Assembly: GCA_000165345.1 (NCBI GenBank)
Contig: CM000434.1
Coordinates: 992,001-1,056,000, forward strand
DNA length: 64,000 bases
Direction of reading: 5' to 3'
Positions 3,111 to 24,395 of this stretch are shown here, one piece after another. Positions within the stretch are counted from its first letter, which is position 1, and each line of letters starts with the position of its first letter. The notes beneath the pieces were generated by a model, which saw only the letters and a list, made by a program, of their open reading frames with translations, was not told where the DNA came from and made no database searches. Position numbers and translations under genes: made by a program.

Positions 3111-3144
3111 AATAATTCCTATTTTATATAACCATTTTTGCACA

Positions 3145-3158
3145 TTTTGGCGCCAAAA
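3145..3158. promoter_or_regulatory. perfect 14-bp E2F-type palindrome TTTTGGCGCCAAAA, 98 bp upstream of ATG 3256
   Basis: Exact palindrome. Located in the 145-bp spacer between genes. Confidence 0.6.
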
Positions 3159-3255
3159 TGTCACAGTGGGGAAGTCTGCGGTATTGCAAGAAATTACTAA
3201 AATAAAGAATTATACAAAAAAAGAAGTTTGTATTTGAAGTGATTATATTGACTTT

Positions 3256-7184: not shown

Positions 7185-7988
7185 ATGAGATTCGCTCAAC
7201 TTGTGGTAGGTCCAGCAGGATCAGGAAAATCAACATACTGCTCTACCATCCAAAAACATTGTGAAGTTATTGGCAGAACATGCCATGTAGTTAACCTGGA
7301 TCCAGCTGCAGAACACTTTAACTACGTATCTCAATTAGATATACGAGATTTAATTTCATTGAATGATGTAATGGAAGAGATTCATCTGGGTCCAAATGGA
7401 GGCCAAGTATTTGCTATGGAATACTTTATAGAGAATTTGGACTGGCTAGAAGAACAACTAAATAAGAATTTTGGTGATAATGACTATGTACTGTTTGATT
7501 GTCCTGGGCAAATCGAACTATTTACTCATCTTCCAGTAATGAGAATTCTAGTGACAGCATTGCAAAGATGGGATTTCAGGATTTGTGGTGTTTATTGTTT
7601 AGATGTTGGGTTTCTTACGGATGCAAGTAAGTTTGTAGCAGGATCTGTCTCAGCATTAAGTACAATGATACAACTTGAAATACCACATGTAAATGTTATT
7701 ACAAAATGTGATATAGTCCAGGATGAGAATCTTGTTTCTAGTTTCCTTCAAAAGGATTCTCTTACTCTAATTAGTGATCTTGAAAAGGTGACTCCAAGTC
7801 ATATAATGCCTTTAAATGTTGCTCTAGCCAATCTTCTTGAAGATTATAGCATTGTTTCTTATGTTCCTCTAAAGCCTGATGATGAGGACTCTGTATCAAA
7901 TGTACTATTAAGTATTGATATGAATCTTCAATTCCACGAAGAGCAAGATCCAACCATGAACTTTGATATTAATGGTGATGAATATTAG
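7185..7988 (+). CDS. GPN3: GPN-loop GTPase 3 (GPN3/ATPBD1C family)
   Basis: 267 aa. P-loop GPAGSGKST, GPN motif (HLGPNGG), DCPGQIELF. Collinear with human GPN3 over full length. Confidence 0.9.
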   Translation: MRFAQLVVGPAGSGKSTYCSTIQKHCEVIGRTCHVVNLDPAAEHFNYVSQLDIRDLISLNDVMEEIHLGPNGGQVFAMEYFIENLDWLEEQLNKNFGDNDYVLFDCPGQIELFTHLPVMRILVTALQRWDFRICGVYCLDVGFLTDASKFVAGSVSALSTMIQLEIPHVNVITKCDIVQDENLVSSFLQKDSLTLISDLEKVTPSHIMPLNVALANLLEDYSIVSYVPLKPDDEDSVSNVLLSIDMNLQFHEEQDPTMNFDINGDEY

Positions 7989-8457: not shown

Positions 8458-9828
8458 ATGAATAAACATAGAAATTTTTTAAGAAAGTTATGTTCTGGCC
8501 CGATATTATTATTAATAATTTTGAGCTTATCCAATAGTACTGAAGTGGATAAAGCTATTAATTTTAAAGAAAACTTACAATCAAAAGAATCAACATTTTC
8601 AACAGGGCTTAGAATACCAAATTATAATAATCATTCTGAAATTTGTAGATTATGTGGTTGTGACTCTACGAAGAATGTAAATGTAGAAGGTTTTAAATCT
8701 TTTACATGTAGTAACTGCAACAAATCCAAAATTCAAGAAGGAGATTGCATTTTGCAAGGAGCAATAAATGATTCAAACAATAACAAAACTGAACTAGTTC
8801 ATGGACTAGAAACTTCAGTTTTTGGAGATTATAGAAGTTTGTTCTTTGGGAAATCTGACTTTTTAACCAGTAGAAGCTATAGAAATAATCTATTGGCTCG
8901 TATTTTTGAACCAGAATTTACATGGGAAAATTTTTCACATGGAAGTATTAAAGATAATTGTAAAATATACAGAGATGAAAATGATGATTTTGAACATTTT
9001 AAGCTTAGTTTTACTTATACACTACATGGCGACCGAAATTGTACACGTCTTTTACTTCATTTTGTGAATAAACACACTGGAAGTACTCTATATAAGAATT
9101 TAAGTCCATTTAAAGAAATAGAAAGTGATTATGATTTAAATTCATTGATGGTTTTTAGGCATGATGATATCAAAGTTAGAGTAGATTCTCTTGAGAAGGT
9201 TAATCTTCACCAAGAATTCAATATCACTTCATACGACTCACCTCCCAAATTCCTATTTAGTTCTGAACAACAAGAATGGGTACCCGTTAGTTTACGGAAT
9301 CAAGAAATTATTGTTAATCCAAAAATTATTCATGAAAGGTTATTAATTATATTTCAGCTCATTAACTCCCAAAGTTCAACTCCAAGCTGCAAAATGGACA
9401 ATGTTAAAGTCGAAGTTGTTGTTCAATGTAAATCTGTAGCTTTCCCGCCAAACCCAAAATACAATAAGGATTTTGTTCAAGATAAACTTAAGAAAATGCA
9501 TTCTAAGTATGATGATAAAATTTTTAAGCTTTTCTTACAAAAATTTGAAGAAAAACTTATGCATGTTCTTGGCTCAATTCCTAATGCTCTACTCACTACA
9601 AATAGTAACAAGTTAATAACGAATACACCCTTGAGCAACTTTTCAATTCCTTGCAAAGAAGCTATTTATCTTGGCGATATTCCAAAGTTAATGACCAAAT
9701 TTAATTATACCTCTAAATTTAATGAACTTGCTAATTCTGGTTCCTATTCTACTTCAACACCAACTTTTGAAGATGTTGACGAAAATAAGCTTTTTAATGA
9801 CATCGAAGCTGCACTTAATACTAACTAA
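8458..9828 (+). CDS. secreted cysteine-rich hypothetical protein with N-terminal signal peptide
   Basis: 456 aa. Hydrophobic N-terminus (ILLLIILSLSNS), multiple Cys clusters (CRLCGCDS…CSNCNKS) and many N-glycosylation sequons. E2F-like sites at 8275-8301 upstream. Confidence 0.6.
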   Translation: MNKHRNFLRKLCSGPILLLIILSLSNSTEVDKAINFKENLQSKESTFSTGLRIPNYNNHSEICRLCGCDSTKNVNVEGFKSFTCSNCNKSKIQEGDCILQGAINDSNNNKTELVHGLETSVFGDYRSLFFGKSDFLTSRSYRNNLLARIFEPEFTWENFSHGSIKDNCKIYRDENDDFEHFKLSFTYTLHGDRNCTRLLLHFVNKHTGSTLYKNLSPFKEIESDYDLNSLMVFRHDDIKVRVDSLEKVNLHQEFNITSYDSPPKFLFSSEQQEWVPVSLRNQEIIVNPKIIHERLLIIFQLINSQSSTPSCKMDNVKVEVVVQCKSVAFPPNPKYNKDFVQDKLKKMHSKYDDKIFKLFLQKFEEKLMHVLGSIPNALLTTNSNKLITNTPLSNFSIPCKEAIYLGDIPKLMTKFNYTSKFNELANSGSYSTSTPTFEDVDENKLFNDIEAALNTN

Positions 9829-9920: not shown

Positions 9921-10115
9921 TTTTCCCGCCTAAAATTGCTCGTATTTTTTAGAAGTTAGAAAAATTAACGCTTTAGTTTAATAATTAGGATCTACCATGT
10001 ATATCAATGAATTTCTTCTCTTCCATTCTGTGAAAACTCTTTTTTCCTCTTCATACGAGAATTGAAGTAATCCTTTGATAATTTATAAGGGAGGGTGAAA
10101 AGTTAGTTTTGGCGG
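9921..10115. promoter_or_regulatory. E2F-like sites ttttcccgcc (9921-9930) and ttttggcgg (10107-10115) upstream of giant ORF
   Basis: GC cores in the spacer 9829-10242. Confidence 0.45.
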
Positions 10116-10242
10116 TTAACATGGCCTAAGACACCCCTCTGGGCCTGTGAGTATAAGAAAGACCAGGAGGCCATTAATAATAAGAAAAGTGTAAAAAAGA
10201 AGATCAGTCCTTTATGGATATTAAGGATTGATAGAGTAGTGC

Positions 10243-13200
10243 TTGATCATCCTAAAGGAGGCTTGCGTTAAAAAAAAGGACCAAATGGTTCGTAATGGTG
10301 ATCAAAGTCTTATAAACATATCATCTACAGACAAGTCTGATAAATGGGACTTGAAGCATAAAAATGAAGAAATTCCAACCAGAAAAGTGGTGGAGGAATC
10401 AAGTCTAGAATACTACGAGAGATCATCGCGCTCGGCCTCGCACTTTGGTAAGGTTTATAATGGACTATATCCAGTAGGTCCAAGATTACCAAGTTTCTCT
10501 TCATCCAATAAAAGAAGTAGGCTACAGAGTACATATAATGAGGATGAGTTCAGTTCCAGTTCAGCAAATAGTTCTGTTATAAATTCCGATGATAAAATGT
10601 ATATTGATTTTCCAATTCGAAATTTCTGGAAGATTGCAAAGACTCCTATAGACATGGAATCTCCCCAAATTGGGTATTGTCGAGGCTTTTATTATAGATT
10701 GTTAGTTCATCCCAGAGGAGGGAGTTGTAATGATTCTGAAAGCAGCTACTTGAGCGTGTTTTTGGAAGCACTTTACCATGAATCATATCCAGACGATTGG
10801 ATTTTTCCAAATGTTCGATTTCAACTTTCAGTTGTAAACTTTTTAGACCCCAAAGCAAATATCACGTCTTGGGCCCATTGGACATTTTCTCATGATGCAA
10901 TGAGTAGAGGATGGCATAAGATGGTTTCACATGTGAGACTCACTAGAGCTGCAGGTTTTGTTGATGACGAAGGAACCGTGTTAATTAGAGGTAGAGCTGA
11001 GCCTCCATTTCCGAGAATTTGGTCAAGATCTCCTAAATGTAGGCCATGGAGTATATGGGGTACCTTACCCTATAGAAATGCATCAGCATTGGCTCAGTAT
11101 AAGCCTTGTATTACCGGAACCCGCCAAGATCAGAACCAAGGCTGTTCTGATAAGCATGTTATTACAACAAATCTTTGTGCTTTTCATGAATTAGCAGAGA
11201 ATTCTAATAGAGGTCTTCTTTCTTGTAGAGCAGAATCACTATCTTCAGAAAGTTGTGGCATTTCTCAACATCAGTTAGAAGGCTCCTTATTAGTAGGGAG
11301 TACTCCTTTGTCAATTATGGATAGACTTTTATGGTCCAGTAGTAATTTGTTTGTTCCAACTTTAAGATCTCAGCTTAATGTGGACTTTGTTCCTGCATTT
11401 GTCCATTTGCTTTACCATATCAAAGAGTTTAGGAGGGCAATTTTCTCTTGGAACCCACGAATCCCTAAGAAATGTTCAACAAATCAAAATCCCAATTCTT
11501 CAGAAAGGTCAAAGAAGCATGATCCCAATCATTCTCCCGCCTCATTTATAGACCCCCAACAGCCACGTACATCCATTATTGAGGCTCTTCAGAAAACCTT
11601 TGCATATATGACTCTCTGGCCAATTGCCTATTCTGTCAAAAGATCTATCCGACATAGCTGGCAAGAAAGAATAGCCACAGATCCTTCTCTTGTGGACGAT
11701 TGGTGTTTCTCTAAATGTTGTAAATGTGGTGGTGAATTTGACTCTTATCCTAACAGTCCTGAAATGACTGACACTTCATCACTCCATACATCAAATAGCA
11801 GAAATGGCCGGCATTGTGCTTCCGATAAAAGTATTCCAACCCAGAGTTCTATTTTCAAAGAAAAGGAATGTCTCAGATGCAAATTACCTCCTGTTCCAGA
11901 TTGTTCTTGGATTATGAAAGCTTTATATATGAACGATTTACAAAGGATTGATGTTGCTGACCCTCTCATGCGCTTCCATTGCTTCATTTTTGGCGCCATT
12001 TATTTGGAGTCTGCACATGCAATTCTCCAGATTGCCGCGCATCACAGAAAGTCAATTCCACAGAATTTCAGGGGTTCAGAAAAGTTTGCCAATTTAGAGT
12101 CATCTGAAGGGAAGGATGAGTTTGAGAGATCCGAATTAACTGATGGTGAGTATAAAGAGTTTAGAGAGTCGGATGAAAGGAGTTTAGGATCACAAAGAAC
12201 TAGAGATCAGGAACAAAGTCGAGGCCAAGGCCGAGGTCAAGGTCAAAGCCAAAACCAAGATCAAGATCAAAACCAGTACTATGATCATGGACAAACACAA
12301 GGACGAGATATGAATATCTCAATCTCTTCTATTTTTGACTTAGAAGAGGATCTGAGAGTCCCAACAGAGTTTGATAATACTTGCAGAGTATTGTTTTCCA
12401 GTGTAGCTGAAGATGGAGGTGATTGCTTCTCTGACTACTCCACGTGCTGCCTTAGAGCTAAGCATATTCATTCAATCCCCAAAGCTATTGAGCATTATGC
12501 TCACAGATTTAAAAGATTCCCTGAAACACTTTTTATTTACTTCACTCCTCCAAAAAATGCCAAGAAGGGAGAGTTGTTTGACGTTCCTTTTAGGCTTGAA
12601 GCATCATTTTTATTGGAGAATTCCAATGTAAATGTAAATACAGGTATCGGAGTGGTTGATCAAGATTTTAAGGGTATAAAATCTGATAATCGTGGACAAA
12701 ACACTAATCAACAAGAGGATATTCAACCTCTTGTCACTGAACAATTCCAAGATGATGAAGTTATTGATGAAAGTACTCCAGACCTGAAAGGTAAAGTTAG
12801 AGGTAATAAAGAAGCAACAGGCTCTGAATCTGGTCAAAATACAACGAGCGTAGTTTTGGACAATAATGATTCTGCATTATGTGTTGAATCCAATGATGAA
12901 TACTCTTTAGAATACGTCTCAGAGGATGGATTTGATGAGAATCAGGACACCTCTATTCAATCTGATAGTCAGGACGATACAACAGGACATAAAAGTGATG
13001 TCAAATCTCCAAATTCTGAGAACTTCTTTGGATCTTCCAGCCAATATATGGAAAAATGGTACTCATTATATGGAGTGATCATTAAAGAAGGAGACGCTTC
13101 TGGAAGTAATTCTACAAGAAGTGTTCATCAACTTCTAATTAGACCTGAAGAAGATGGTCCATGGTTTAGAATTTGTGATGGTTTAGTTGAAAGACTTATA

Positions 13201-16200
13201 CCAAAGATTGAATTCACAGAGTGGAAATGTCATGGTGGATTCTTTTGTGCTGCTGCTGTATATATTGCTGAGGATTACATTGATTCAATTGCTGCAGGAG
13301 ACGTAATGGCTGATTGTGATATAAAGACTATTAACCCAAAGCTATATCAAGAGACTCTAGATCTTCTGGAAGTTTCTGAGGAAGAACTTCAGTATATCCC
13401 ATCTTGGGTATCTACACAAGTTAATACTTATGGTCCAAACAATGTACATTTGGAGATGCCTTCTTCAGAAGTTGATCATCTTGCAATGTGTGTAGATATT
13501 GCAAACGTTACTGTATGTGACTCAACAACATGTGTATTTGGACATCCTCTAATGGATGCTGGTTTATCAATTGATCCTTACTCTTTATGGATGCTTGTTG
13601 ATTATCGTTGGGGTTGGCCTTTAGTAAACAGCTACTTCCAACTCCAAGAACCTTTGGTTCAAGCTTTTTCAGCAGATCCTTCTGTTATACTTTCTGGGAG
13701 GACTATTCTCACTCCTTCAGCTCAAAAGCTACTCAATTCATTATCATTCAAATCTTTACGAGATTCTATACCAAAGTTTTGGAGCTTATTATTCGATATT
13801 ATGTTAGGACCAGATTTGGATTCTAAGGATCTTGATGCAATTCTACAAGTAGTTCCTCATCTTAGATCTCTATCTGCTAATATATTTCTTGAGATCCATA
13901 GGCTTTTGGAAGAATTTGGTATTTCTGAGGAATCTCAAGATCTTTTATTCTCCCAATCTGAGCTATACTCTGCTTTAGAACCTGATGTTAATCATTGTGA
14001 AATTAATAAAGATGATCTTCAAGATCAAGATCAAGATCAACAACATGATAAAGGCTGTCTAAAAGAGTATTTAAAGAATAACATTACAATCGAAGATAAA
14101 CTGGTACCTTATAATAAAGTAAAAATGATTTTATATCCTTCAATTCCTTCTCATCCTCCAAGCTTCCAACTAAATCAAAATGAAATCACTCCATCTTATA
14201 ATATTGCTCTAAACTTCATTAACAGGCTTCACATCCTTCTTTGGCCTCATCTTATACATTTTATCTATGAGCTTCTTCCTGTTGCAATTACTATCAGACT
14301 AAAAAGACTTCTTTTCAAGAGTAGTGACGACCTCTTATTTGATCCCAGACTTACTCCTGAAGATCTTTGTGCTAGATTCTTAACAGAATCCAAGTTTCTA
14401 TTAGAATCTAGCTGTTGTCCACTTAACTTGATTAGATTCTGTGATAACAAACAGCTTTTGAATGCTGCAATAAACCAGGTAGCAGCAGCTTTAGATATAC
14501 ATGGATCATCATATACAGCAGCTTCTTGTTCTTTATCTTGTCCTACTAATAGAATGATTGATAGATTTGCTTCAGAGCTTGGAAGTTCAAACTTTGTAGT
14601 CCCAATATTGGTATATATTACTCAAATATTACTTTCTGGAACATTATATAGAGTATCATCAAAATTACTTCCACCTGAAGCTTTGTATACTTGGCCTACA
14701 AGTTCTTCAAATCAAGAATCTTTGTCTTTAACAGGTATCGGGAATTTAATTAATCATAAAGATTCCACGCCTTCAAAACAGTCAACTGGATCAAAAAAGA
14801 GGAATTCTTCAAATAAGTCTTCTTCTGGTACAGCAAGTTCTAATGGATTAATTGTACCAAATCCACTCTCAGAAGCAATTCAACATCTTCAAGTGAATCA
14901 GGTATCATTCAGTCATATTGATCCTTATGTATTTATTCCTCTTCATACATTCCACGCTGTATCAACTCCTTTATTGGTAAACATCATCTTTGAAAATGAT
15001 CTTATAGGGAGGAAGTCTTTTGCATCTGAGAGTTTTCTATGTGCTTCCAGAGTCCTTCATGTAAATAGACTTGCAACAGTAAGACATTTATACTCAGCAA
15101 TAAGAAAAGTTCTATATCAACAATTTCTAGATACAAAGATTTCTAATAGTTTAGATACTCCAGATGTAACACCATTAGATACTCCTCAATCTAAGAATAA
15201 TAATGAACATAATACAATAGGAGGAAGACAACAATCTTCTGGTCATACTCATACTAATAAGAAGAATACAATATCAAATATTCCGATACCTATAGATTGT
15301 GAAGGTTTTGATTTAAGTTGGATACCAAGTAATCCATTGGATGTTTTCTGTCTTTACTCTTTAAGACCAGATACTGATCCAACAAGAAGAGGAAGACTTA
15401 AATATACTTATATGCAACCAAATGACTTTCTAGAGAATCATTATTATGGACCTCACAAATCTAATTATGTTACGTATTGTGATGTTGCAATTTTAATTTG
15501 TGTACCTCCAGAATTGAAGCTCCAAATACCTCCAGGATCTCAGAATTCGGATCATATAACAAAAAATTCTTCATCCCAAATGAATACAGTATCGGTATCT
15601 GGAGTAGGGGTACCGGGAAAAGCAGCAAGCTTAATGGGGTCAATATCAGCAGGAATTGGAGAATCTGATTCAGATTGTGCATGTTTGTATACTTGTCCAA
15701 GTCATATAGCTCATTCACCAGTATGTCAGAGTTCAAGGATGATAGAAAAGACTGTTCCAAAAATCGTCTCACCTTTATTCAAGGCTAAACTAATAGATCC
15801 TTTATGGTCAAGTACTAAATTCCCAATGAATGATGATTCAGTTGCTCCTCTTTTGATTTTTAAATGGTTTGATCAGACAACTTTGGATATTACACTGTTA
15901 AGTGCATCAATATGTGAAGCAAGAAAGTCTTTAAGAGATTGTATTGTTTCTTGGGTATTCCCTAGAGCAAGAAGAATGGGATTAATGCCTCAAAATTCTT
16001 CTAAAGAGACTCCAAATGCAGATGATTATACAGTTTTAGAGGAATGTCATATTAGAGTATGTCAAAATGTAAGAAGATGGACTTCATCAATAAAGAAAAT
16101 CAATAGAACAACAGGAGATGTATTTATTGTTCAAAAAAGATACAATAATTTGGGATCATCCCAACCTCTGATTTCTGATTGTTCATTTATATCACCCTTT

Positions 16201-19200
16201 ATATCAGCAGCATTATCATCTAATTCATATTCGGGTATTGTAGATGACTTTCCGCCTTCTCTTTCAAGGGATGAGTTATTAGCTATAATTACTAGTATGA
16301 ATACTAAGAAGATTAACCAGCTTGGGATCTTTAATACTCCAATTAAAGGTATATCAGGAAGCAATTCTCCAACAGTATTAGATCTAAAAAAGAATAGTTT
16401 GGATAGAACTTGGCCGATATCTGCATCTCCTATGGGAGGAGATCCTAAATTAACCTTTTCACAATTCTTTGATATTCTTAAGCATGGGGACGATTCTGGG
16501 GACTTTTTAGCATCCCAAATTGAGGATTTGGATATCTATTCATATCAGAATAGTAGTTGTAAGATTTCTATGGAAGATATTTCTTCATTAAAATCCGGTA
16601 CCGATCAAGGAAATTCATTGAATCAGGCAGAAAAAGGTAATCATTCTGTAACTGGAGTTAGTAATGAAACAACTTCAATAGATTTGAAGTCAGTTACAAC
16701 ATTTACTAATACAAATACAGTACAGATTTTAAATGCAAACAACTCTAATCAAAATGATTTATCTGCAATTTCTAGTAACTCTTTAATTGGAGGAACAGGA
16801 GTGGCGGGAACTTCTGGAGGTGGATCTAAGAAGAAGAAAAAAGCTTCCAAGAAGCTTCCTGGAATTCCATCACTACAGAAATCAAGCATTGTGAAGGCTT
16901 TAAATGCTCAGAGAAGACTAGAATCTCAATCTACAAGACTTGTAGATAATGATTCAGCTGATTTATCAGGATTGAGAGGGAGAGATCAAGGTCAAGATCA
17001 TGATCAAGATCTTGATCATGATCGGAGTCAGGGTCAGAATCAGAATCAGGATCAGGGTCAGGGTCAGGGTCAAGCCCAGGATCATGATCAGGATCAGGAT
17101 CAACATAGTAATCAGTATAATGAAGAGGAATCCAAACAGGATAATAAGGGAAATGAAAAACGCAAAGAAGGTCATAAAGAGAAGGATGTTGAAAGAAGTG
17201 ATATTAAAGTAAACAATTTATCTACAGCTTTGAAAAAGGATGCAAACTCTCCTGAATCTATGGATAAAGCTGGCTTGGAGGCTAAGCCTGATTCATCTTC
17301 TCCTTCTTCCTCCTTTTCTTATGGAACTGTATCTCTTAGACCAGAAAAGCTTCAGAAAGTTCCTGATGAACTTTTTGAAATCGCTCTTGAAAGCTTTTCT
17401 GGAGACTCATTCAGTGTCTCCAGCTTAGTTGGCCGTTTATTGGAGCGTGTTATATGCAGATTTTCTGAGATCTCAAATAGAAAAAAGGAAGACTCCTCAT
17501 CTCATATTTCTGAAACCTTTTCTGATTCTAATAATAGATCCGAATTCCTATTATGGATGAATGGATTAAATGATCTCGTATGTAACTTATCTTTGATTGG
17601 AGGTAGCAAAAAGATTGACCAAACTCTTATTCAAAGAGAAATCATACAACTCCTTAGAAGACTTCTCTCAACTGAGACAAGTTCTCAACAACTTTCTAGT
17701 GTTGCATCTGAAAGTCTTTCATCTATAATTAAATATTTAGAGGATGGAAATCTTGAGCCTTGTTTTAAATCAATAATTTACAATATTCCACAAGTTGGAT
17801 CAGGATCAAGATCATTAATATCGGTACCTGGTTTATTAAAAACGATACCCAAATATGGTAATAATTTTAATAAAGAATCATTTAATAATTATTATAATAA
17901 TATGTATAATATTTTAGTACCAGTACAACAAAGATCTGCTATTTTGTTCACAATATTATTAATTAAAAGTTTAACAATACTGTCTCCAAGTTCAATAATA
18001 GAGATGCATCTTGGATTACTTCCTAAGACGGATTATATAAGATCTAATTCATTAATTAAATCAACAGGTTATAAATCAATTAAGTCGTTTGTTTTGTTAG
18101 CATACTTTTTGAATGTTTTTGGAGTTAAAGATGCAATGGATGTTATTATTTCAATACAAGGAGTTAAAGGATTTGAGAATCTATTGATTAGGATGGCATC
18201 CTATACTATAGGCTTGAGACAATATGCAACTAGTAACTTTATTATAGAGAATATTGAAAAGCTTCATGATCATCATCCATCTTTAGATTGGGTATCGTCT
18301 TTAAGAATTACTGATAAGTTAGCAATCAGTGAGGAAGTTCTTAAGAAGACTTTGGAGACTATTTGTGATCATTTTTCTACAAAGAGTAATTCAGCTTTTG
18401 CTCAGAATAAGAAGACTTTGGATTTAATACAAAATGTTGAAGGAATTGTCAGATTCTCAGATATCAATGATTTTGCATATGAACAGGCTCAATTATTAGA
18501 AATGAGAAAAGTTGGAAAAGATTCTCCTCAAATATTAGTTAATAATGATGACTTATGTATAATACTTAAACCTCCTTTCTGGTATTGTCCAATAGAAGGT
18601 ACAGGGATGGATGAGGATGAACAAGATGAGGAGGATAAACAAGATGAACAAGAAGAAAGTGTAGAATATGAAGAAGAATTAGAATACAAAGAAGATGAAA
18701 CTGATGGTGATAAAATAGAAAATCAAAGAAATGATGACAAGAAAAGAAGAAAGGTAAAAAAGAAGCTTGATCATGATAATATCCAAGATGAAAACAATAA
18801 GGATGAGAAAACAGGTATAAGAAAAGATCTTAAGAATAAAGTATCGAGTATTATAATTAAAGAAGAAGATAATGATTCTGAAATTGAAGTTGAAAAAGAT
18901 AATAATAATAGTAATACTGATGAATTTGAGGAGATTCTAAATAGTGGAAGAATGGAAAGTATCTTGAACTTTTTGAAATTAAGATGTAAAGGAATAGGCT
19001 TAGATTTAAGAGGTAACGAGAAAATGATTAAAAGAATTGGATTAAAACTTGGAGTTGAGATTGGAGGTCCAATATTAATTTTAAAGAATGAAGATATGGA
19101 GAAATACTATAATAAGAATGAGATCTTGAATCAAATTCATTGTCAGTATATATTTTTATGCCATGGACAGATTCAGAATTCTTCTGATAGAAATGTCTCT

Positions 19201-21702
19201 TTATCAAATATTGTCTCAAATGCTTCAAATAGAATATTCTCAAAATGTCTTTCATCAGATGGAGGTGATTCTATTGCAAAATATAATGTTTGTGAACATA
19301 TCAAGTTTAAGAATTATAATAAAGGTTCTCCATCCACATTTTCTTTATGTACATGTATTTCAAAACCCGGTAACGTAAATAAGATTAGAGCTTATATGCA
19401 TCAAATTGGTCATACAATTGTTGGTGATTCTAAACATCTTGGTCAGAAACAACTAAGTTTGGATAGAAGATATTTTCCTAATATATTCTTTTATTGTACT
19501 CATTTGGAGATTCCTTTAATGCAAAATAATAATGTTAAAAAAGATGGTGATCATGAAATAGAGGAAAAGCGTGATGGGAATACAATAATATTGGATAGTA
19601 ATGCAATAATAAATAAAGAAAGTATTAAAGTTATGGCTCCAGTTTCAAGAGATATAATGGAACTTCTTGAGAATGATTTTGAAATTACAGAAAAGTTCTC
19701 AGATATGTACTTTTGTCATTTTTATAAGACTAATGTTGAACTTGAAAAGTTGGATAAAGCTGAAAAGACTTCACAAGTTACCCCTTCTGATGCTGATATA
19801 GAAACTAGAGTTGGGGATGATTTAGTAGAGTATAATGAAATTAAGGCTACAAATATGAAATCTGGTAATGTTATTATTAATGATGAAAAAGATAAAAGAA
19901 AATGTTCAGAAAGTACAGAAAATGATAATTTTGAGCCTCTTAGTATATCAAATACTCTGATAGCTTCTCTTCCTGGACTTGGATTTGGACTTACACCATT
20001 TCTTGGTATGCCTAATTCTCAATATGCTGCAAGTGTGAATTGTTCTCAAGATGAGAAATCATTGGAACGTAAACAAAACCAGCGATTATCATTATCTTCT
20101 TCTTCCTCCTCTTCTTCTTCCTCCTCTTCTTCCTCCTCTTCTTCTTCCTCCTCTTCTTCCTCCTCTTCCTCCTCTACTTCTTCTTCAGTTCATACTATGA
20201 TACCGCCAGATTCGGCTAGCTTATCTTCTCCAACTCCGGCATCAACTTTACATGCAAAGACAAATGCTGGAGTATTTACATCATTTGGATTTGGAAGGAA
20301 TTTTCTAACATCTTCTGTTGATAATTCAACAAACTCTGCAAGCATTGGAGGTGGGATTGGAAGAGTTGGAGGAGGAATTGGAAATATTAGAGGTGGAGGT
20401 ATATCATCTACTGGTGGTATGACAGTTAATAATACTGGTTTAAGGCATTTGGTATCTCAACACAACCAATCCGGAGGTGGAAATGGAGATGGAAGTAGTA
20501 TCATTAACAGCAATAGTAACAATAGTGGTAATAACAATAATAGTAGTTCTCTTCCTATAAAGACTCATCCAAGCTTGGTTTCTTGTCTTACAGAATTAAA
20601 CTCAAAATCAGATGGATCTGCACTGGGAATTGGACTAAGTACGAGCAATTTGGTGCCTGGAGGAGGAAATATCTTCCATCAACAAAACTTCATGCAGGGA
20701 ATAATGACAGGAGGAACAGGAGGAATAGGATTGGGAGGTATAGCAGGAAGTTTAGCAGGTGGAGCTGCAGGTGGGGTAACAGGTGGGGTTGCAGGCGGAG
20801 TGGCAGGTGGAGCTGCAGGAGGTTTAACAGGAGGTGGAGTAGCAGGAGTAGGAGTTTCACCATCACCAATTTTCCAACATCACGGGAACAATACAGCTGG
20901 AATTGTAAATAGTGGAAGATATGGAAGCTTAACAATGAACAGTGGTATTAGAATGGATGCAGGCACTGGTACGTTAGGTAATAATGCAGTACAAATGCAT
21001 CATCAACAGCATCAACAACAACAACAAAGTTCAGGGGCAAAACAGGGCTGGAATACTCAAGATCTGCTTCAAAATCCAAGATGGACTTCATCTGAAGTTA
21101 ATAACGATGGTTTTGGAGGTGGAGTCAATAGAATTGTAGGAGGAGGAGGAGGAGTCTCTGAAGAAATGAATGTAAATCAATGGAATAATGGAATTGGCGG
21201 GAATTTCAGAGCTTTAAACTCAAGAGGAATTAATAATTCTGGAGGATTAAACCTGTCAACAGTTAACTTGGTTACAGGAATAGGTATTGGCGGCAACATC
21301 GGTATCAATAGTAATATTGGTATTGGCAGTAATATTGGTAATGGAAATAGTACCACTGGATTAGGAAATATAAATGTAACAGAAGGTACCGGTATAACAA
21401 TTGGATCAGGAGTAACAATGGGACCAGGAGTAACAATAGGACCAGGAGTAACAATAGGACCAGGTTTATGGGGACAACATGCTGCCCAACAGCAACCCTC
21501 AATCATTGTTGATCCTCCGTCTCAGGGGAAACATTCGTCAATGCAACAACAAATTGGAGGAATTCCCAATATTGTCTCAAATCTACATGCCAAAAACATA
21601 CAAGACGGAATTAGTTCCCAAAGATTTGATACTTTTCCTCATGAAAGGGGTGAAACTACTGAGCATTTGGAATCTAGACAAGGAAAGAAATCTCCATTTT
21701 AA
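10243..21702 (+). CDS. giant multidomain protein (3819 aa): MATH domain + degenerate USP-like region + low-complexity tracts + C-terminal RluA-type pseudouridine synthase-like domain
   Basis: Single 11.46-kb ORF. MATH/TRAF-like block (YIDFPIRNFWKI…GFVDDEGTVLIRGRAEP). USP-like Cys-box and His-box analogues with catalytic residues not obviously conserved (…FVHLLYHIKEFRRAIF…; YSLYGVIIKEGDASG…WFRICDGLVERL). RluA motifs ILVNNDDLCIILKPPFWYCPIEG … QYIFLCHG … KIRAYMHQIGHTIVGD … FFYCTHLEIPL. In-frame microsatellites. Alternative start MVRNGD at 10285. Confidence 0.8.
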   Translation: MIILKEACVKKKDQMVRNGDQSLINISSTDKSDKWDLKHKNEEIPTRKVVEESSLEYYERSSRSASHFGKVYNGLYPVGPRLPSFSSSNKRSRLQSTYNEDEFSSSSANSSVINSDDKMYIDFPIRNFWKIAKTPIDMESPQIGYCRGFYYRLLVHPRGGSCNDSESSYLSVFLEALYHESYPDDWIFPNVRFQLSVVNFLDPKANITSWAHWTFSHDAMSRGWHKMVSHVRLTRAAGFVDDEGTVLIRGRAEPPFPRIWSRSPKCRPWSIWGTLPYRNASALAQYKPCITGTRQDQNQGCSDKHVITTNLCAFHELAENSNRGLLSCRAESLSSESCGISQHQLEGSLLVGSTPLSIMDRLLWSSSNLFVPTLRSQLNVDFVPAFVHLLYHIKEFRRAIFSWNPRIPKKCSTNQNPNSSERSKKHDPNHSPASFIDPQQPRTSIIEALQKTFAYMTLWPIAYSVKRSIRHSWQERIATDPSLVDDWCFSKCCKCGGEFDSYPNSPEMTDTSSLHTSNSRNGRHCASDKSIPTQSSIFKEKECLRCKLPPVPDCSWIMKALYMNDLQRIDVADPLMRFHCFIFGAIYLESAHAILQIAAHHRKSIPQNFRGSEKFANLESSEGKDEFERSELTDGEYKEFRESDERSLGSQRTRDQEQSRGQGRGQGQSQNQDQDQNQYYDHGQTQGRDMNISISSIFDLEEDLRVPTEFDNTCRVLFSSVAEDGGDCFSDYSTCCLRAKHIHSIPKAIEHYAHRFKRFPETLFIYFTPPKNAKKGELFDVPFRLEASFLLENSNVNVNTGIGVVDQDFKGIKSDNRGQNTNQQEDIQPLVTEQFQDDEVIDESTPDLKGKVRGNKEATGSESGQNTTSVVLDNNDSALCVESNDEYSLEYVSEDGFDENQDTSIQSDSQDDTTGHKSDVKSPNSENFFGSSSQYMEKWYSLYGVIIKEGDASGSNSTRSVHQLLIRPEEDGPWFRICDGLVERLIPKIEFTEWKCHGGFFCAAAVYIAEDYIDSIAAGDVMADCDIKTINPKLYQETLDLLEVSEEELQYIPSWVSTQVNTYGPNNVHLEMPSSEVDHLAMCVDIANVTVCDSTTCVFGHPLMDAGLSIDPYSLWMLVDYRWGWPLVNSYFQLQEPLVQAFSADPSVILSGRTILTPSAQKLLNSLSFKSLRDSIPKFWSLLFDIMLGPDLDSKDLDAILQVVPHLRSLSANIFLEIHRLLEEFGISEESQDLLFSQSELYSALEPDVNHCEINKDDLQDQDQDQQHDKGCLKEYLKNNITIEDKLVPYNKVKMILYPSIPSHPPSFQLNQNEITPSYNIALNFINRLHILLWPHLIHFIYELLPVAITIRLKRLLFKSSDDLLFDPRLTPEDLCARFLTESKFLLESSCCPLNLIRFCDNKQLLNAAINQVAAALDIHGSSYTAASCSLSCPTNRMIDRFASELGSSNFVVPILVYITQILLSGTLYRVSSKLLPPEALYTWPTSSSNQESLSLTGIGNLINHKDSTPSKQSTGSKKRNSSNKSSSGTASSNGLIVPNPLSEAIQHLQVNQVSFSHIDPYVFIPLHTFHAVSTPLLVNIIFENDLIGRKSFASESFLCASRVLHVNRLATVRHLYSAIRKVLYQQFLDTKISNSLDTPDVTPLDTPQSKNNNEHNTIGGRQQSSGHTHTNKKNTISNIPIPIDCEGFDLSWIPSNPLDVFCLYSLRPDTDPTRRGRLKYTYMQPNDFLENHYYGPHKSNYVTYCDVAILICVPPELKLQIPPGSQNSDHITKNSSSQMNTVSVSGVGVPGKAASLMGSISAGIGESDSDCACLYTCPSHIAHSPVCQSSRMIEKTVPKIVSPLFKAKLIDPLWSSTKFPMNDDSVAPLLIFKWFDQTTLDITLLSASICEARKSLRDCIVSWVFPRARRMGLMPQNSSKETPNADDYTVLEECHIRVCQNVRRWTSSIKKINRTTGDVFIVQKRYNNLGSSQPLISDCSFISPFISAALSSNSYSGIVDDFPPSLSRDELLAIITSMNTKKINQLGIFNTPIKGISGSNSPTVLDLKKNSLDRTWPISASPMGGDPKLTFSQFFDILKHGDDSGDFLASQIEDLDIYSYQNSSCKISMEDISSLKSGTDQGNSLNQAEKGNHSVTGVSNETTSIDLKSVTTFTNTNTVQILNANNSNQNDLSAISSNSLIGGTGVAGTSGGGSKKKKKASKKLPGIPSLQKSSIVKALNAQRRLESQSTRLVDNDSADLSGLRGRDQGQDHDQDLDHDRSQGQNQNQDQGQGQGQAQDHDQDQDQHSNQYNEEESKQDNKGNEKRKEGHKEKDVERSDIKVNNLSTALKKDANSPESMDKAGLEAKPDSSSPSSSFSYGTVSLRPEKLQKVPDELFEIALESFSGDSFSVSSLVGRLLERVICRFSEISNRKKEDSSSHISETFSDSNNRSEFLLWMNGLNDLVCNLSLIGGSKKIDQTLIQREIIQLLRRLLSTETSSQQLSSVASESLSSIIKYLEDGNLEPCFKSIIYNIPQVGSGSRSLISVPGLLKTIPKYGNNFNKESFNNYYNNMYNILVPVQQRSAILFTILLIKSLTILSPSSIIEMHLGLLPKTDYIRSNSLIKSTGYKSIKSFVLLAYFLNVFGVKDAMDVIISIQGVKGFENLLIRMASYTIGLRQYATSNFIIENIEKLHDHHPSLDWVSSLRITDKLAISEEVLKKTLETICDHFSTKSNSAFAQNKKTLDLIQNVEGIVRFSDINDFAYEQAQLLEMRKVGKDSPQILVNNDDLCIILKPPFWYCPIEGTGMDEDEQDEEDKQDEQEESVEYEEELEYKEDETDGDKIENQRNDDKKRRKVKKKLDHDNIQDENNKDEKTGIRKDLKNKVSSIIIKEEDNDSEIEVEKDNNNSNTDEFEEILNSGRMESILNFLKLRCKGIGLDLRGNEKMIKRIGLKLGVEIGGPILILKNEDMEKYYNKNEILNQIHCQYIFLCHGQIQNSSDRNVSLSNIVSNASNRIFSKCLSSDGGDSIAKYNVCEHIKFKNYNKGSPSTFSLCTCISKPGNVNKIRAYMHQIGHTIVGDSKHLGQKQLSLDRRYFPNIFFYCTHLEIPLMQNNNVKKDGDHEIEEKRDGNTIILDSNAIINKESIKVMAPVSRDIMELLENDFEITEKFSDMYFCHFYKTNVELEKLDKAEKTSQVTPSDADIETRVGDDLVEYNEIKATNMKSGNVIINDEKDKRKCSESTENDNFEPLSISNTLIASLPGLGFGLTPFLGMPNSQYAASVNCSQDEKSLERKQNQRLSLSSSSSSSSSSSSSSSSSSSSSSSSSSSTSSSVHTMIPPDSASLSSPTPASTLHAKTNAGVFTSFGFGRNFLTSSVDNSTNSASIGGGIGRVGGGIGNIRGGGISSTGGMTVNNTGLRHLVSQHNQSGGGNGDGSSIINSNSNNSGNNNNSSSLPIKTHPSLVSCLTELNSKSDGSALGIGLSTSNLVPGGGNIFHQQNFMQGIMTGGTGGIGLGGIAGSLAGGAAGGVTGGVAGGVAGGAAGGLTGGGVAGVGVSPSPIFQHHGNNTAGIVNSGRYGSLTMNSGIRMDAGTGTLGNNAVQMHHQQHQQQQQSSGAKQGWNTQDLLQNPRWTSSEVNNDGFGGGVNRIVGGGGGVSEEMNVNQWNNGIGGNFRALNSRGINNSGGLNLSTVNLVTGIGIGGNIGINSNIGIGSNIGNGNSTTGLGNINVTEGTGITIGSGVTMGPGVTIGPGVTIGPGLWGQHAAQQQPSIIVDPPSQGKHSSMQQQIGGIPNIVSNLHAKNIQDGISSQRFDTFPHERGETTEHLESRQGKKSPF
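12210..12275 (+). repeat. in-frame (GGY/CAA/GAT)n-type microsatellite encoding GQGRGQGQSQNQDQDQNQ in giant ORF
   Basis: caaggccgaggtcaaggtcaaagccaaaaccaagatcaagatcaaaaccag. Confidence 0.8.
16981..17105 (+). repeat. second in-frame GAT/CAG/GGT trinucleotide repeat (encodes DQGQDHDQDLDHD…QNQNQDQGQGQGQAQDHDQDQDQ) in giant ORF
   Basis: gatcaaggtcaagatcatgatcaagat…cagggtcagggtcagggtcaa. Confidence 0.8.
20092..20188 (+). repeat. (TCT/TCC)n microsatellite encoding a ~30-residue poly-serine tract in giant ORF
   Basis: tcttcttcttcctcctcttcttcttcctcc… continuous for ~95 nt. Confidence 0.9.
20707..20855 (+). repeat. Gly-rich GGxAGG hexapeptide-type repeat (ggtggggtaacaggtggggttgcaggcggagtggcagg…) in giant ORF
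   Basis: Repeated ggNgSNgcagg units encoding GGVAGGVAGGAAGGLTGGGVAGVG. Confidence 0.75.
21403..21465 (+). repeat. tandem 18-nt repeat (ggaccaggagtaacaata x ~3.5) encoding GPGVTI repeats
   Basis: ggatcaggagtaacaatg ggaccaggagtaacaata ggaccaggagtaacaata ggaccagg. Confidence 0.9.
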
Positions 21703-21850
21703 CAAGACAAAACAAAAAAATGTAACTTATAGCTTTTTCTTTTAAATTAAATATATATTTAAATTTGTCTCCCTTTTCTTTTTCTTTTTCTTCTTCTTCT
21801 TCTTCCTTATTTTTTTGGTCCTTTCAATATTTTGCATCCTCCATTTTTAC

Positions 21851-21884
21851 ATGCATGCAGAACTTTTGGCGCCACCCCACACTA
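21851..21884. promoter_or_regulatory. composite ATGCATGCA + E2F (ttttggcgccacc) + G-box-like (ccccacacta) module upstream of gene 22221
   Basis: Contiguous 34-nt GC-rich module. 20-mer almost identical to module at 53535-53558. Confidence 0.6.
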
Positions 21885-22220
21885 CCGGCATTGGATGCAT
21901 TTATTAGTAGTGGGCGAGGCACTCTAAGAGGTTTTTTTCTTTTTTTTTTTTATTATTTAAATTAAAATTCTAAAGTATTGGTAATAATAATCATAAAAAA
22001 AGTTTATATAATTATAACCACATTGATTAATATTTATTTCTAAATATTAATACTAATATTGTTTTCTATAAAATATCACTTCCTTGAATGTAATATTAAT
22101 ATCCTAATCTTCTTTCCCCTCTATATTAAAAATATTTCGAAAGAAGGGAATGAGGAAAAGTTGTTTAAGACATTAATAACTATTTGGAATAATTGTGTAT
22201 AAATAAGGGGGAAAAAAAGG

Positions 22221-24395
22221 ATGATTCCGAATGGATCAAAACTTGAGCTTGGAACTTTAGTATTAGGTTCTGAAACAGTAAGAAAAGGATGGAATGCATT
22301 TTCAACTTTAAATAATGCAATAGATGGAGTTAGAAAAGTGGCAAATGATGTAGTAGGATATAATAATTCAACAACAATAGGAAATGAGAATTATAAAGGA
22401 GAATTGGAAAATAATAAAATAGTAAGTATAATAGAGAAAATAGAAGTAGGACAGGTATATGGAAGATTAAAAAATGATTTAAAATTAATACAAATATTTG
22501 AAAGAGAAACAAAATCAATGGGAACTTTAGAAATTATTTCAATTAATAATAATTTAGACTTTTCATATTTAAATATAAGATGGAGACGAAAAATGGGTGA
22601 AAAATTAATTGATATACAAGGTAAAGATTCAAGCCTAAAATATAACTTAACAGCTGATGATGTAGGAACAATTATTATTATAGAAATATATCCAAAAGGA
22701 GAAGCAAATGATCCTTTAAATATTACATATTGTGAATTAGGACCTATAGAAATAGATGATACAACAAAGATATCTTTATCAAAATCTTTAAAAACAGGTC
22801 TTATTAGATTCCCTGTAGAAATTATAAAAGATGAATTTGAAAGCTTAATAAATCCAGAAAATTCTTCAAAAGAATTAAAAAATGATGAAGATTCAATAAT
22901 GACAAAAGATATTTTGGTAGTAACAAATGATGATGTTAAAGTAATTAAAAATGGAATGACAAGTTCAAATTCAAACTTTGAAAAGAAAATTGTATGGTCA
23001 GCAAAATACTTTGGTGGTAATATACATATTCAATTAAATCATCAATCATCATCTTGTCAAGAATTCACTCTTTGTTCTGGATACGATATTCATAAACAAA
23101 AGATATCAATTAAAACAACAAGTAGAAATGCTAGAGATATTGCAGCTTTAACAATTAGATGTTTAAATATTAGACACACAATATCATTAGAAGCTATAAT
23201 TGGAGGTGGAGTTTCCTGGATCCCAAAAAACTCAACAGTAAATGATTCAGATAATATGGAAATTGAAGAAAATAGAAAATTAAATATTTTTGCTTATATA
23301 GGACGTCTAGAAGATGAAATTGCAAATTTAGAGAATAACAAGGAAAAACTGAACGAAGATAAAAAACTTCTTCAAACTGAAAAAGCTATTTTAGAAAATG
23401 AATTAGCTGAGACAATTTCAGCTTATCAAGATATAATTTCTCAATATCAACAAGAAAAAGATACTAAAACCAATACTAACAAACAAACCAAAGAATTTAA
23501 CATAGAATTTGGGCTTGAAAAGAACACAGGAATTAAACAATCCAACAATAGTCCAAACAAAAAGTCGATTCAATCAAATTCAAATAATTCTCATAAATCT
23601 ACCTTACTACATGGTTACAGTGGTACCTATCCTATAAATAATTCAAAACAAGATGGATCTAGCAATTCAGAAAATAATAATAACTCACAGAAAAATGAAT
23701 CCATTCAACAAAATTCCACTGAAATTAATAAAATAATTGAAGAAAATGCTTCTCTTAAAGAGTCCATTTCTCAACTTAATAAAAAATTTGAAAATGAAAT
23801 TGGCGCCAAAGAGTCAATGGAGCGCATGCATGCAGAAATTGAAGAATTGCGCGGGAGATTGGAAAGGTCGGAAAAAGAAAAGGAAGACTATAAAAGATTA
23901 AATGAAAAATTAGATGGCGAAATCTTTGTTAAAAATCAAGAATTAGAGAGTATTAAGTTAGGACAATGTTTAAATTCGACTAGAAATATAGAAAAGATAC
24001 AGCAATTGGAAGATCGCATATTGGATCTTCAGAGTCAGAATTCTGAAAAACAACAAGCTATTCAAACTTTATCAACAGAAAAATCAAAGCTTCTAAAAGA
24101 CTTTTCATCATTAAAATTAGACTTTGATAAGCTTAAGGAGCAACATAATCAACTAAATAAGAGATACATAAGCTTAAATCTTGAGAATTCAAGAATTCAT
24201 GATCAAGAAAAATCATCAAAATTTGACAATGAACTCATGAATTCTGACTCTCAAAACAAAAATGACCAAGCTGTTGATATTACAAAACTAAAAAGTGAGC
24301 TTGAAGATTATAAGAAAACTAATTGTGAGCTTAACCAGACTATAACTCAACTTAAAACAAGAATACGAAGGTTAGCAATGATCAATTCTACTTAG
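22221..24395 (+). CDS. hypothetical protein, 724 aa, with C-terminal coiled-coil region
   Basis: Long ORF. C-terminal 300 aa heptad-rich (LEDRILDLQSQNSEKQQAIQTLSTEKSKLLKDF…). E2F/G-box/GCATGCA module 350 bp upstream. Confidence 0.65.
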   Translation: MIPNGSKLELGTLVLGSETVRKGWNAFSTLNNAIDGVRKVANDVVGYNNSTTIGNENYKGELENNKIVSIIEKIEVGQVYGRLKNDLKLIQIFERETKSMGTLEIISINNNLDFSYLNIRWRRKMGEKLIDIQGKDSSLKYNLTADDVGTIIIIEIYPKGEANDPLNITYCELGPIEIDDTTKISLSKSLKTGLIRFPVEIIKDEFESLINPENSSKELKNDEDSIMTKDILVVTNDDVKVIKNGMTSSNSNFEKKIVWSAKYFGGNIHIQLNHQSSSCQEFTLCSGYDIHKQKISIKTTSRNARDIAALTIRCLNIRHTISLEAIIGGGVSWIPKNSTVNDSDNMEIEENRKLNIFAYIGRLEDEIANLENNKEKLNEDKKLLQTEKAILENELAETISAYQDIISQYQQEKDTKTNTNKQTKEFNIEFGLEKNTGIKQSNNSPNKKSIQSNSNNSHKSTLLHGYSGTYPINNSKQDGSSNSENNNNSQKNESIQQNSTEINKIIEENASLKESISQLNKKFENEIGAKESMERMHAEIEELRGRLERSEKEKEDYKRLNEKLDGEIFVKNQELESIKLGQCLNSTRNIEKIQQLEDRILDLQSQNSEKQQAIQTLSTEKSKLLKDFSSLKLDFDKLKEQHNQLNKRYISLNLENSRIHDQEKSSKFDNELMNSDSQNKNDQAVDITKLKSELEDYKKTNCELNQTITQLKTRIRRLAMINST

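Follow-up and report, generated by a model that had tools for sequence, protein, structure and literature searches.

The closest described counterpart of the protein analyzed here is USP7/HAUSP (peptidase family C19), in which an N-terminal MATH domain, a USP fold and USP7-type ubiquitin-like domains follow one another in that order. The MATH domains of USP7, SPOP and the TRAFs bind short peptide motifs, and in USP39/Sad1 an inactive USP fold operates in RNA machinery. On the RNA-modification side, the RluA family (RluC, RluD, RluA and human RPUSD1/RPUSD4; PF00849) provides the reference fold and motif order, and to our knowledge the catalytic Asp is indispensable in all pseudouridine-synthase families. 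A USP-type fold and an RNA enzyme stand in one chain in PAN2 (USP52), which comprises WD40, an inactive UCH and an exonuclease (PMC4158885). Here we describe, in a 64,000-nucleotide stretch of a Cryptosporidium genome (contig CM000434.1, positions 992,001 to 1,056,000; the window), an 11.5-kb gene whose giant product has the module order of USP7 but reaches three times the length of USP7 and has, toward its C-terminus, an RNA-enzyme fold of the RluA type. An Asp stands in place of the catalytic Cys in its USP fold and a Gly in place of the catalytic Asp in its synthase fold, from which we predict that neither ancestral activity is present. Like PAN2, it unites a dead USP/UCH fold with an RNA-processing domain in one polypeptide, and the architecture of PAN2 indicates that such a pairing can work without deubiquitination. 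The likeness drawn here is one of architecture, and it is incomplete: PAN2 has a DEDD exonuclease rather than a pseudouridine synthase and WD40 rather than MATH; furthermore, the RNA enzyme of PAN2 is active, whereas the synthase fold in the window has lost its catalytic residue. The initial annotation of this DNA had called the architecture unfamiliar from model organisms, a view that needs qualification in one respect, as the combination of a dead USP with an RNA enzyme has a partial precedent in PAN2 (PMC4158885).

Judged from its sequence, the 11.5-kb open reading frame (ORF) is a real single gene. In the ORF listing of the window, positions 10243..21702 of the + strand form one uninterrupted frame of 3819 codons, and no further ORF of at least 150 amino acids (aa) overlaps this interval on either strand. 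The listed start is a TTG that comes from the ORF lister; the first ATG lies at 10285, and the likely coding sequence (CDS) runs from there to the stop at 21700-21702 (+ strand; 3805 aa). With a G+C content of 31%, the base composition of the window leads one to expect a stop every 12.6 codons, and 3819 open codons would therefore arise by chance with P ~1e-137. The best protein match, at 96% identity and 100% coverage, is the annotated C. hominis ortholog, which has the same start and end (MVRNGDQS... / ...KKSPF) and is likewise called as one CDS, in agreement with the single frame proposed initially; the 14 length differences between the two sequences all preserve the frame and are sited in low-complexity repeats. 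It is thus scarcely credible that we are dealing with an assembly or annotation artifact, or with two genes in which an unrecognized intron or stop, or the presence of two mRNAs, splits the MATH-USP part from the RluA part. Such a split could be accommodated by the ~770 poorly conserved residues (aa 1965-2734) that link the USP7-type module to the synthase fold, but the ratio of nonsynonymous to synonymous substitution (dN/dS) in this linker, at 0.30 against C. hominis and 0.15 against a second, more distant Cryptosporidium species (Nei-Gojobori, as for all ratios given below), is still coding-like, and the same continuous CDS is found in two other Cryptosporidium assemblies. Single transcripts from gregarines also speak against a split: in Selenidium pygospionis, a complete transcriptome ORF of 4462 aa carries all modules on one transcript, and a Gregarina transcript contig spans MATH into the synthase domain.

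The best conserved part of the protein is its MATH/TRAF domain (nucleotides (nt) 10588..11037, + strand, aa 102-251). Scanned alone, this segment matches Pfam MATH_2 (PF22486) at ~nt 10612-10971 with 41.2 bits (cutoff 32; E 2.4e-10) over profile positions 5-128 of 136, which places the MATH block of the initial annotation above a curated threshold; the whole-protein Pfam scan missed it, presumably because of composition corrections on a long, low-complexity protein. A family hidden Markov model (HMM) scores the MATH domains of the family at 243 bits or more and every other MATH protein at 92 or less, and the dN/dS of the domain is 0.00 against C. hominis and 0.005 against the second species. 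The USP-fold domain without a catalytic Cys follows at nt 11305..13305 (+ strand, aa 341-1007) and, unlike that of USP7, is interrupted by long low-complexity inserts. This interval has no direct Pfam match, no USP match in a whole-protein NCBIfam scan and no PDB sequence match, either by phmmer or with the family profile, and it was recognized through profiles and orthologs. Gregarine orthologs, which are 38-39% identical over the USP-like block and lack its inserts, match PF00443 UCH with 38-39 bits (cutoff 23.9; E ~1e-9) over profile positions 11-240 of 254, and the Toxoplasma ortholog reaches 25.4 bits against the same cutoff. An HMM of 31 alveolate MATH-USP catalytic domains matches the block in the window itself (hmmsearch; 21 bits, P 7.9e-9) in two collinear stretches, the Cys-box helices and the His box. 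When the family profile, with the window sequence as its first row, was compared with the same 31 domains in hhalign, 309 columns aligned from the Cys-box helix to the C-terminal strand with a probability of 96.2% and E 2.7e-9. Searches of PDB with the family USP profile and with the gregarine USP segment returned only chance matches (a de novo Trp protein and T4 lysozyme), which we rejected.

A pair of USP7-type ubiquitin-like domains lies downstream of the USP fold (nt 15283..16176, + strand, aa 1667-1964; VFCLYSLRPD... to PLLIFKWFD...GDVFIVQKR). In hhalign this region aligns with the C-terminal regions of 21 alveolate MATH-USP proteins over 170 columns (probability 96.9%, E 1.4e-10), and these columns comprise two consecutive ubiquitin-like units, namely PLLIFKWFD...GDVFIVQKR and the unit that precedes it. 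The pair, which is conserved in coccidia, piroplasms and gregarines, was found by profile-profile comparison only; its sequence has no direct match in Pfam or PDB, its profile has none in PDB, and segment scans for Pfam USP7_ICP0_bdg and USP7_C2 gave no match in the protein. In contrast to USP7, only these two ubiquitin-like units were detected. In an exhaustive HMMER search of 1.84 billion proteins with a MATH+USP profile, the best matches outside the family were alveolate MATH-USP enzymes with an intact GLKNHGATCYMN Cys box (GATCYMN), and two of these, checked by Pfam, consist of MATH plus UCH, or of UCH plus a weak USP7_C2. From these nearest matches together with the ubiquitin-like pair, the N-terminal 2000 residues can therefore be described as a diverged USP7-type module. 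The Cys-box/His-box block that had been noticed initially thus finds support in the gregarine PF00443 matches, the HMM match and the hhalign result, and the likeness to USP7 proves stronger than was claimed, as it extends to the ubiquitin-like pair after the USP fold. The stretches at aa 1008-1666, 1965-2734 and 3080-3300 showed no match to USP7 C-termini, and their conservation outside Cryptosporidium is faint. Within the first of them, ~aa 1300-1400 (nt 14150-14500) is 69% invariant in five Cryptosporidium sequences and matches no known domain, with faint similarity only in piroplasms and Selenidium.

Like the MATH-USP enzymes, the protein has an EFRR motif in the helix that follows the Cys box, and this provides the register for the active site. 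The degenerate Cys box LNVDFVPAFVHLLYH (nt 11374..11418, + strand) carries Asp367 (nt 11383-11385) at the catalytic-Cys position; an ungapped match to the GATCYMNGLLQSLFH+EFRR of MATH-USP enzymes sets the Asp on the Cys, and since the helix after the Cys box also aligns gap-free (...LNVDFVPAFVHLLYHIKEFRRAIF in the window against ...GATCYMNGLLQSLFHVGEFRRIVY in MATH-USP enzymes), Asp367 falls on the nucleophilic Cys. Neither Cryptosporidium nor coccidia have a Cys at or beside the nucleophile position (NVDF / GADY). Asp occupies the position in 8 of 8 inspected Cryptosporidium sequences, and the same Asp is present in Toxoplasma, Besnoitia, Cystoisospora, Gregarina, Blabericola, Selenidium, Theileria equi, T. 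parva and Babesia bigemina; the exceptions are B. duncani (His), the chromerid Vitrella homolog (Thr) and the family member P0033 (Tyr). The Cys-to-Asp change is thus nearly family-wide. In the His-box region SVHQLLIRPEEDGPWFRICDG (nt 13120..13182, + strand), which hhalign aligns with the USP7-like His box, the His of VHQ lies at most one residue from the aligned catalytic position, beside an alignment gap; C. muris has Tyr in its place, and gregarines and piroplasms lack this His. The third triad position, filled by Cys, Ser or Gly, is likewise unconserved across the family, so that, unlike USP7, the protein has an Asp for the catalytic Cys and no conservation of the other triad positions. 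Also unlike USP7, it contains a Cys-rich insert with two CxxC motifs (CCKC ... CLRC; nt 11716..11886, + strand) between the Cys-box helices and a QQD-like box. This insert is kept in Cryptosporidium and coccidia and absent from gregarines; from its motifs it may be a zinc ribbon, placed elsewhere than the canonical zinc site of the USP fingers.

The persistence of the Asp raises the question of whether it represents simple inactivation. As an alternative, the Asp that replaces the catalytic Cys could support a new type of chemistry or contact a particular ligand, for instance a ubiquitin-like modifier. Its presence in 15 of 18 family sequences inspected, across Cryptosporidium, coccidia, piroplasms and gregarines, is more conservation than would be expected of an unconstrained position, and fits such a role; the His of B. 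duncani, the Thr of Vitrella and the Tyr of P0033 do not, and neither does the absence of conservation at the other triad positions. We know of no USP-fold enzyme described with an Asp nucleophile, and on balance we regard a new function of this residue as improbable.

The RluA-family pseudouridine-synthase fold occupies nt 18487..19734 (+ strand, aa 2735-3150), an interval with no direct Pfam match and no phmmer match in PDB, for which NCBIfam TruC reached only E 0.024. A profile of the five Cryptosporidium sequences alone matches the catalytic domain of E. coli RluC (E 2.2e-6), the family profile matches RluC (3.7e-19), RluD (1e-13), RPUSD1 (2.5e-12) and RluA (1.5e-10) in PDB, and the Toxoplasma and Gregarina orthologs carry PF00849. 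An AlphaFold2 model of the domain, built from only 8 sequences, has a predicted local distance difference test score (pLDDT) of 70-87 in its core, and all 20 of the top 20 matches of this model in PDB by Foldseek are pseudouridine synthases, led by RPUSD1, RluC, RluA and RluD (E 1e-7 to 6e-4, probability 1.0). The target-normalized template modeling (TM) score is 0.48-0.57 for the leading RluA-family matches and 0.31-0.46 for several lower ones; the query-normalized score is low because of an acidic insert of ~110 aa after strand 1 (nt 18595-18924, + strand), which is disordered in the model. RluA-like chains of trypanosomatid mitoribosome assembly intermediates (6yxx_EC, 7aoi_XP and 7am2_BZ), that is, folds within ribonucleoprotein (RNP) assembly complexes, are also among the Foldseek matches. 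Fold and motif order are those of the RluA family; the acidic insert and the setting within a 3805-aa protein are not, and no S4 domain was detected. The motifs quoted in the initial annotation are all where it placed them (ILVNNDDLCIILKPPFWYC from nt 18532, QYIFLCHG in 19141-19167, KIRAYMHQIGHTIVGD in 19369-19428 and FFYCTHLEIPL at 19486-19518). Of the three modules for which it proposed Pfam searches as a check, MATH was found directly, whereas the USP and RluA modules gave no direct match; direct Pfam scans would thus have counted against two of its three modules, which were recovered via profiles, orthologs and the fold search.

In accordance with its membership in this fold class, the domain keeps the Tyr of the K/QxY motif (QY) and, in motif III GNVNKIRAYMHQIGHTIVGD (nt 19369..19428, + strand; ..KIR..GH.IVGD, equivalent to GRTHQIRVH..GHPIVGD), the Arg; within Cryptosporidium, neither motif III nor the beta-1 strand varies. 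Motif II is different. In the degenerate IGLKLGVEIGGPILILK (nt 19036..19086, + strand), KLG replaces the HRLD of the RluA family, and Gly2923 (nt 19051-19053) of KLGVEIGG falls on the catalytic Asp of RluC HRLDRDTSG when aligned with RluC by HMM and also in the alignment of the family. The C. ryanae ortholog and its close relative read KFGVDIGA at this point, and the motif is intact in Toxoplasma and Besnoitia (HRTDLETSG) and in Gregarina and Selenidium (HRIDLETSG). In C. muris the sequence is TFDDEISG (~aa 2440-2460), in which the Asp is kept and the preceding His-Arg is lost. Given that C. muris has kept the synthase Asp, has lost the His-Arg and has a Tyr in the His box, the loss of catalytic residues appears to have been stepwise within the genus. 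The RluA-type module of the initial annotation is therefore sustained by the profiles and by Foldseek; its picture of a ubiquitin-system reader or pseudo-enzyme joined to an RNA-modification fold needs one correction, as that fold is here itself predicted to be a pseudo-enzyme. These active-site residues also bear on the opposite possibility, namely that a working deubiquitinase and a working pseudouridine synthase reside in one chain. Both folds are present and under purifying selection, a His lies near the USP catalytic position, and the synthase Tyr and the Arg of motif III are retained, as a bifunctional enzyme would need; since Cryptosporidium and coccidia lack a Cys both at the nucleophile position and beside it, and since Gly stands here for the required synthase Asp, we nevertheless consider a bifunctional enzyme very unlikely.

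Despite the loss of these residues, the USP and synthase folds are still under purifying selection. In the comparisons with C. hominis and with the second species, respectively, dN/dS is 0.090 and 0.078 for the USP-like block, 0.108 and 0.074 for the ubiquitin-like pair, and 0.058 and 0.074 for the synthase core (aa 2881-3085). The synthase fold is thus being kept, and so most likely retains a non-catalytic role. One could argue instead that only the USP7-like half matters and that the frame merely stays open through a synthase-like domain and tail that are remnants in decay. Such decay would agree with the loss of the catalytic Asp, with the orthologs of piroplasms, which have no synthase domain, and with the low conservation of the C-terminal half, in which 2-34% of positions per 100 aa are invariant among five Cryptosporidium sequences, compared with 40-90% in most of the N-terminal half. 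It would not account for a dN/dS in the synthase core as low as that of the USP-like and ubiquitin-like parts, for a fold that is still predicted at pLDDT 70-87, or for the invariance of motif III and the beta-1 strand within the genus, and we therefore think decay unlikely.

The sequences of other apicomplexans indicate that the giant gene is the Cryptosporidium ortholog of one gene conserved across Apicomplexa. Among Cryptosporidium orthologs, identity is 76-96%. The proteins of Toxoplasma (6535 aa) and Gregarina are BLAST-collinear with it through MATH, USP, ubiquitin-like region and synthase, and the existence of such collinear orthologs in coccidia and gregarines implies that the fusion is older than the split of gregarines plus Cryptosporidium from coccidia. 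The initial annotation had offered two origins for the architecture. A lineage-specific fusion is the better description, with the proviso that it is an apicomplexan-wide ortholog rather than a Cryptosporidium novelty; the recent loss of a stop codon between two genes is contradicted by a fusion common to coccidia and gregarines and by the single Selenidium transcript. As to whether the modules are separate genes in other apicomplexans, a question raised initially, they are joined in coccidia and gregarines, and in the piroplasm orthologs the synthase is missing. The piroplasm orthologs (Theileria and Babesia; 2557-2801 aa) contain the USP7-type modules, namely MATH, dead USP fold and ubiquitin-like pair; no synthase domain was found in them, permissive thresholds included, and the proteins end after the conserved middle region. 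That these orthologs have no synthase suggests that the core function resides in the USP7-like half. In the Vitrella homolog there is a USP-like part, without a detectable synthase.

We have high confidence in this structural and evolutionary description of the giant protein. What it does is a separate matter, and the mechanism that we put forward is tentative and perhaps more likely to be wrong than right. We propose that in this Cryptosporidium neither the USP nor the synthase domain catalyzes its ancestral reaction, and that the protein would act as a large non-catalytic reader or scaffold in which recognition of ubiquitin or of peptide motifs is linked to RNA binding. By analogy with USP7, SPOP and the TRAFs, the MATH domain may recognize partner proteins through short peptide motifs. 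Ubiquitin binding or stabilization of the module may be the task of the ubiquitin-like pair and of the dead USP fold, in which the Asp is conserved, in the manner of the inactive USP folds of PAN2 and USP39, and the dead synthase fold may keep a role in binding RNA or RNPs. Where HRxD is intact, as it is in coccidia and gregarines, this scaffold would probably deliver real pseudouridylation. Taken together, description and mechanism form the explanation that we somewhat favor overall.

Several observations weigh against this reading, and we acknowledge them here. The synthase part is dispensable in piroplasms and, across Cryptosporidium species, it is far less conserved than the N-terminal half. 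In C. muris there is an Asp at the synthase catalytic position, and the loss of activity may thus not span the whole genus. The AlphaFold2 model of nt 11305-13305 (11 sequences) is poor, with a mean pLDDT of 38 and a predicted TM score of 0.23, and the assignment of the USP fold therefore rests on sequence profiles. The nearly invariant Asp at the Cys position could signify a new activity rather than mere loss. Finally, binding of ubiquitin, peptides and RNA is putative for every member of the family. A broader proposal can be built on the scaffold reading: the family would serve as an adaptor, conserved in apicomplexans, in which MATH and the dead USP with its invariant Asp recognize ubiquitin or degron-like peptides and are physically coupled to a module for RNA modification or RNA binding. 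The ubiquitination state of a partner, for example a protein of the ribosome or the spliceosome, would direct pseudouridylation or RNP handling, and Cryptosporidium would stand at the end of this path, with both activities lost and selection acting solely on the scaffold that does the coupling. We offer this as speculation with only a small chance of being correct.

The architecture is already visible in public annotation. In GenBank, the product name of the Cryptosporidium orthologs is 'large having a MATH plus UBC hydrolase plus type I pseurousyn plus hexapeptide', and the architecture is therefore not new; our literature searches found no paper that describes it. The Toxoplasma ortholog is named 'RNA pseudouridine synthase superfamily protein', a name common to several T. 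gondii genes, and has precomputed MATH and PF00849 matches. Other components of the public names, 'hexapeptide', 'LRR' and 'WD40/YVTN', have no support in the protein of the window: LRR and WD40 profiles had no match in the whole-protein scan or in six segment scans, Pfam Hexapep had no match up to E 10 in nt 19702-21699, and the 'hexapeptide' is an 18-bp repeat that encodes GPGVTI, together with Gly-rich low complexity. The same scans yielded AAA_lid_TANC1 (18 bits, cutoff 29), TUG-UBL1, eIF-3_zeta, Presenilin and BUD22, all of which were rejected as sub-threshold and mostly located in low-complexity or acidic sequence. To these names the present analysis adds descent from USP7, a Cys-to-Asp change throughout nearly the whole family, a loss of the synthase Asp that is specific to Cryptosporidium and occurs while purifying selection on the domain continues, and the lack of a synthase domain in piroplasm orthologs.

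The C. hominis and B. bigemina orthologs are also named 'MATH and LRR domain-containing protein', which we take to be the Swiss-Prot name of P. falciparum PFE0570w / PF3D7_0511500. In PlasmoDB this Plasmodium gene is called 'RNA pseudouridylate synthase'. From these shared public names only, PFE0570w is probably the Plasmodium ortholog; no Plasmodium sequence was among the matches of any of our homology searches. A piggyBac mutant of PFE0570w shows 57% growth attenuation (PMC2952599), and over-production of gametocytes has been reported for it as well (PMC10269797).

Beyond the folded modules, the protein ends in a Ser/Gly/Asn-rich low-complexity tail of ~650 residues (nt 19735..21699, + strand), which contains tandem repeats at the DNA level and is the least conserved part, with a dN/dS of 0.25 against C. 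hominis and 0.19 against the second species. Four in-frame tandem repeats lie on the + strand of the gene: (GATCAG)n at 16983-17103, which encodes Asp/Gln/Gly runs, (TCT)n poly-Ser at 20095-20186, a Gly-rich 24/48-bp repeat at 20743-20849, and the 18-bp repeat with four copies of GPGVTI at 21376-21464. Length differences from C. hominis fall mostly in the tail and the repeats, among them one of 18 Ser codons at nt 20095 and one of 6 codons at 21421, and the in-frame repeats could be possible typing markers. The window as a whole is AT-rich, ORF-dense, compact eukaryotic sequence, in which the giant ORF stands out with a G+C of 0.29-0.39 per 2 kb (10001-22000) compared with 0.24-0.28 in the flanking 2-kb windows. 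Upstream of the gene are a GPN-loop ATPase (7185-7988; Pfam ATP_bind_1, E 6.5e-76) and an ORF of 455-456 aa with no Pfam match (8458-9828); downstream are an ORF of 723-724 aa, likewise with no Pfam match (22221-24395), and a TRAPPC8/Trs85 homolog (24619-30423; a 1934-aa ORF listed with a GTG start). At the orthologous loci of C. hominis and of the second Cryptosporidium species, the order of GPN-loop ATPase, ~455-aa ORF, giant gene as one CDS, ~723-aa ORF and TRAPPC8 is the same.

Our findings refine public names that speak of a hydrolase or a pseudouridine synthase: the giant gene, among the largest of a very compact parasite genome, encodes a USP7 descendant with a Cys-to-Asp change and a synthase domain whose catalytic Asp is lost in Cryptosporidium and which is still selected. 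In our view this usefully corrects the annotation and gives parasite cell biology a reasonable target, but it is not a new type of system. The family offers a natural experimental contrast between the intact HRxD of Toxoplasma, the dead motif of Cryptosporidium and the piroplasms with no synthase domain. It is conserved from gregarines to coccidia and, apparently, in Plasmodium, where transposon mutants of the likely ortholog grow poorly and over-produce gametocytes (PMC2952599, PMC10269797).

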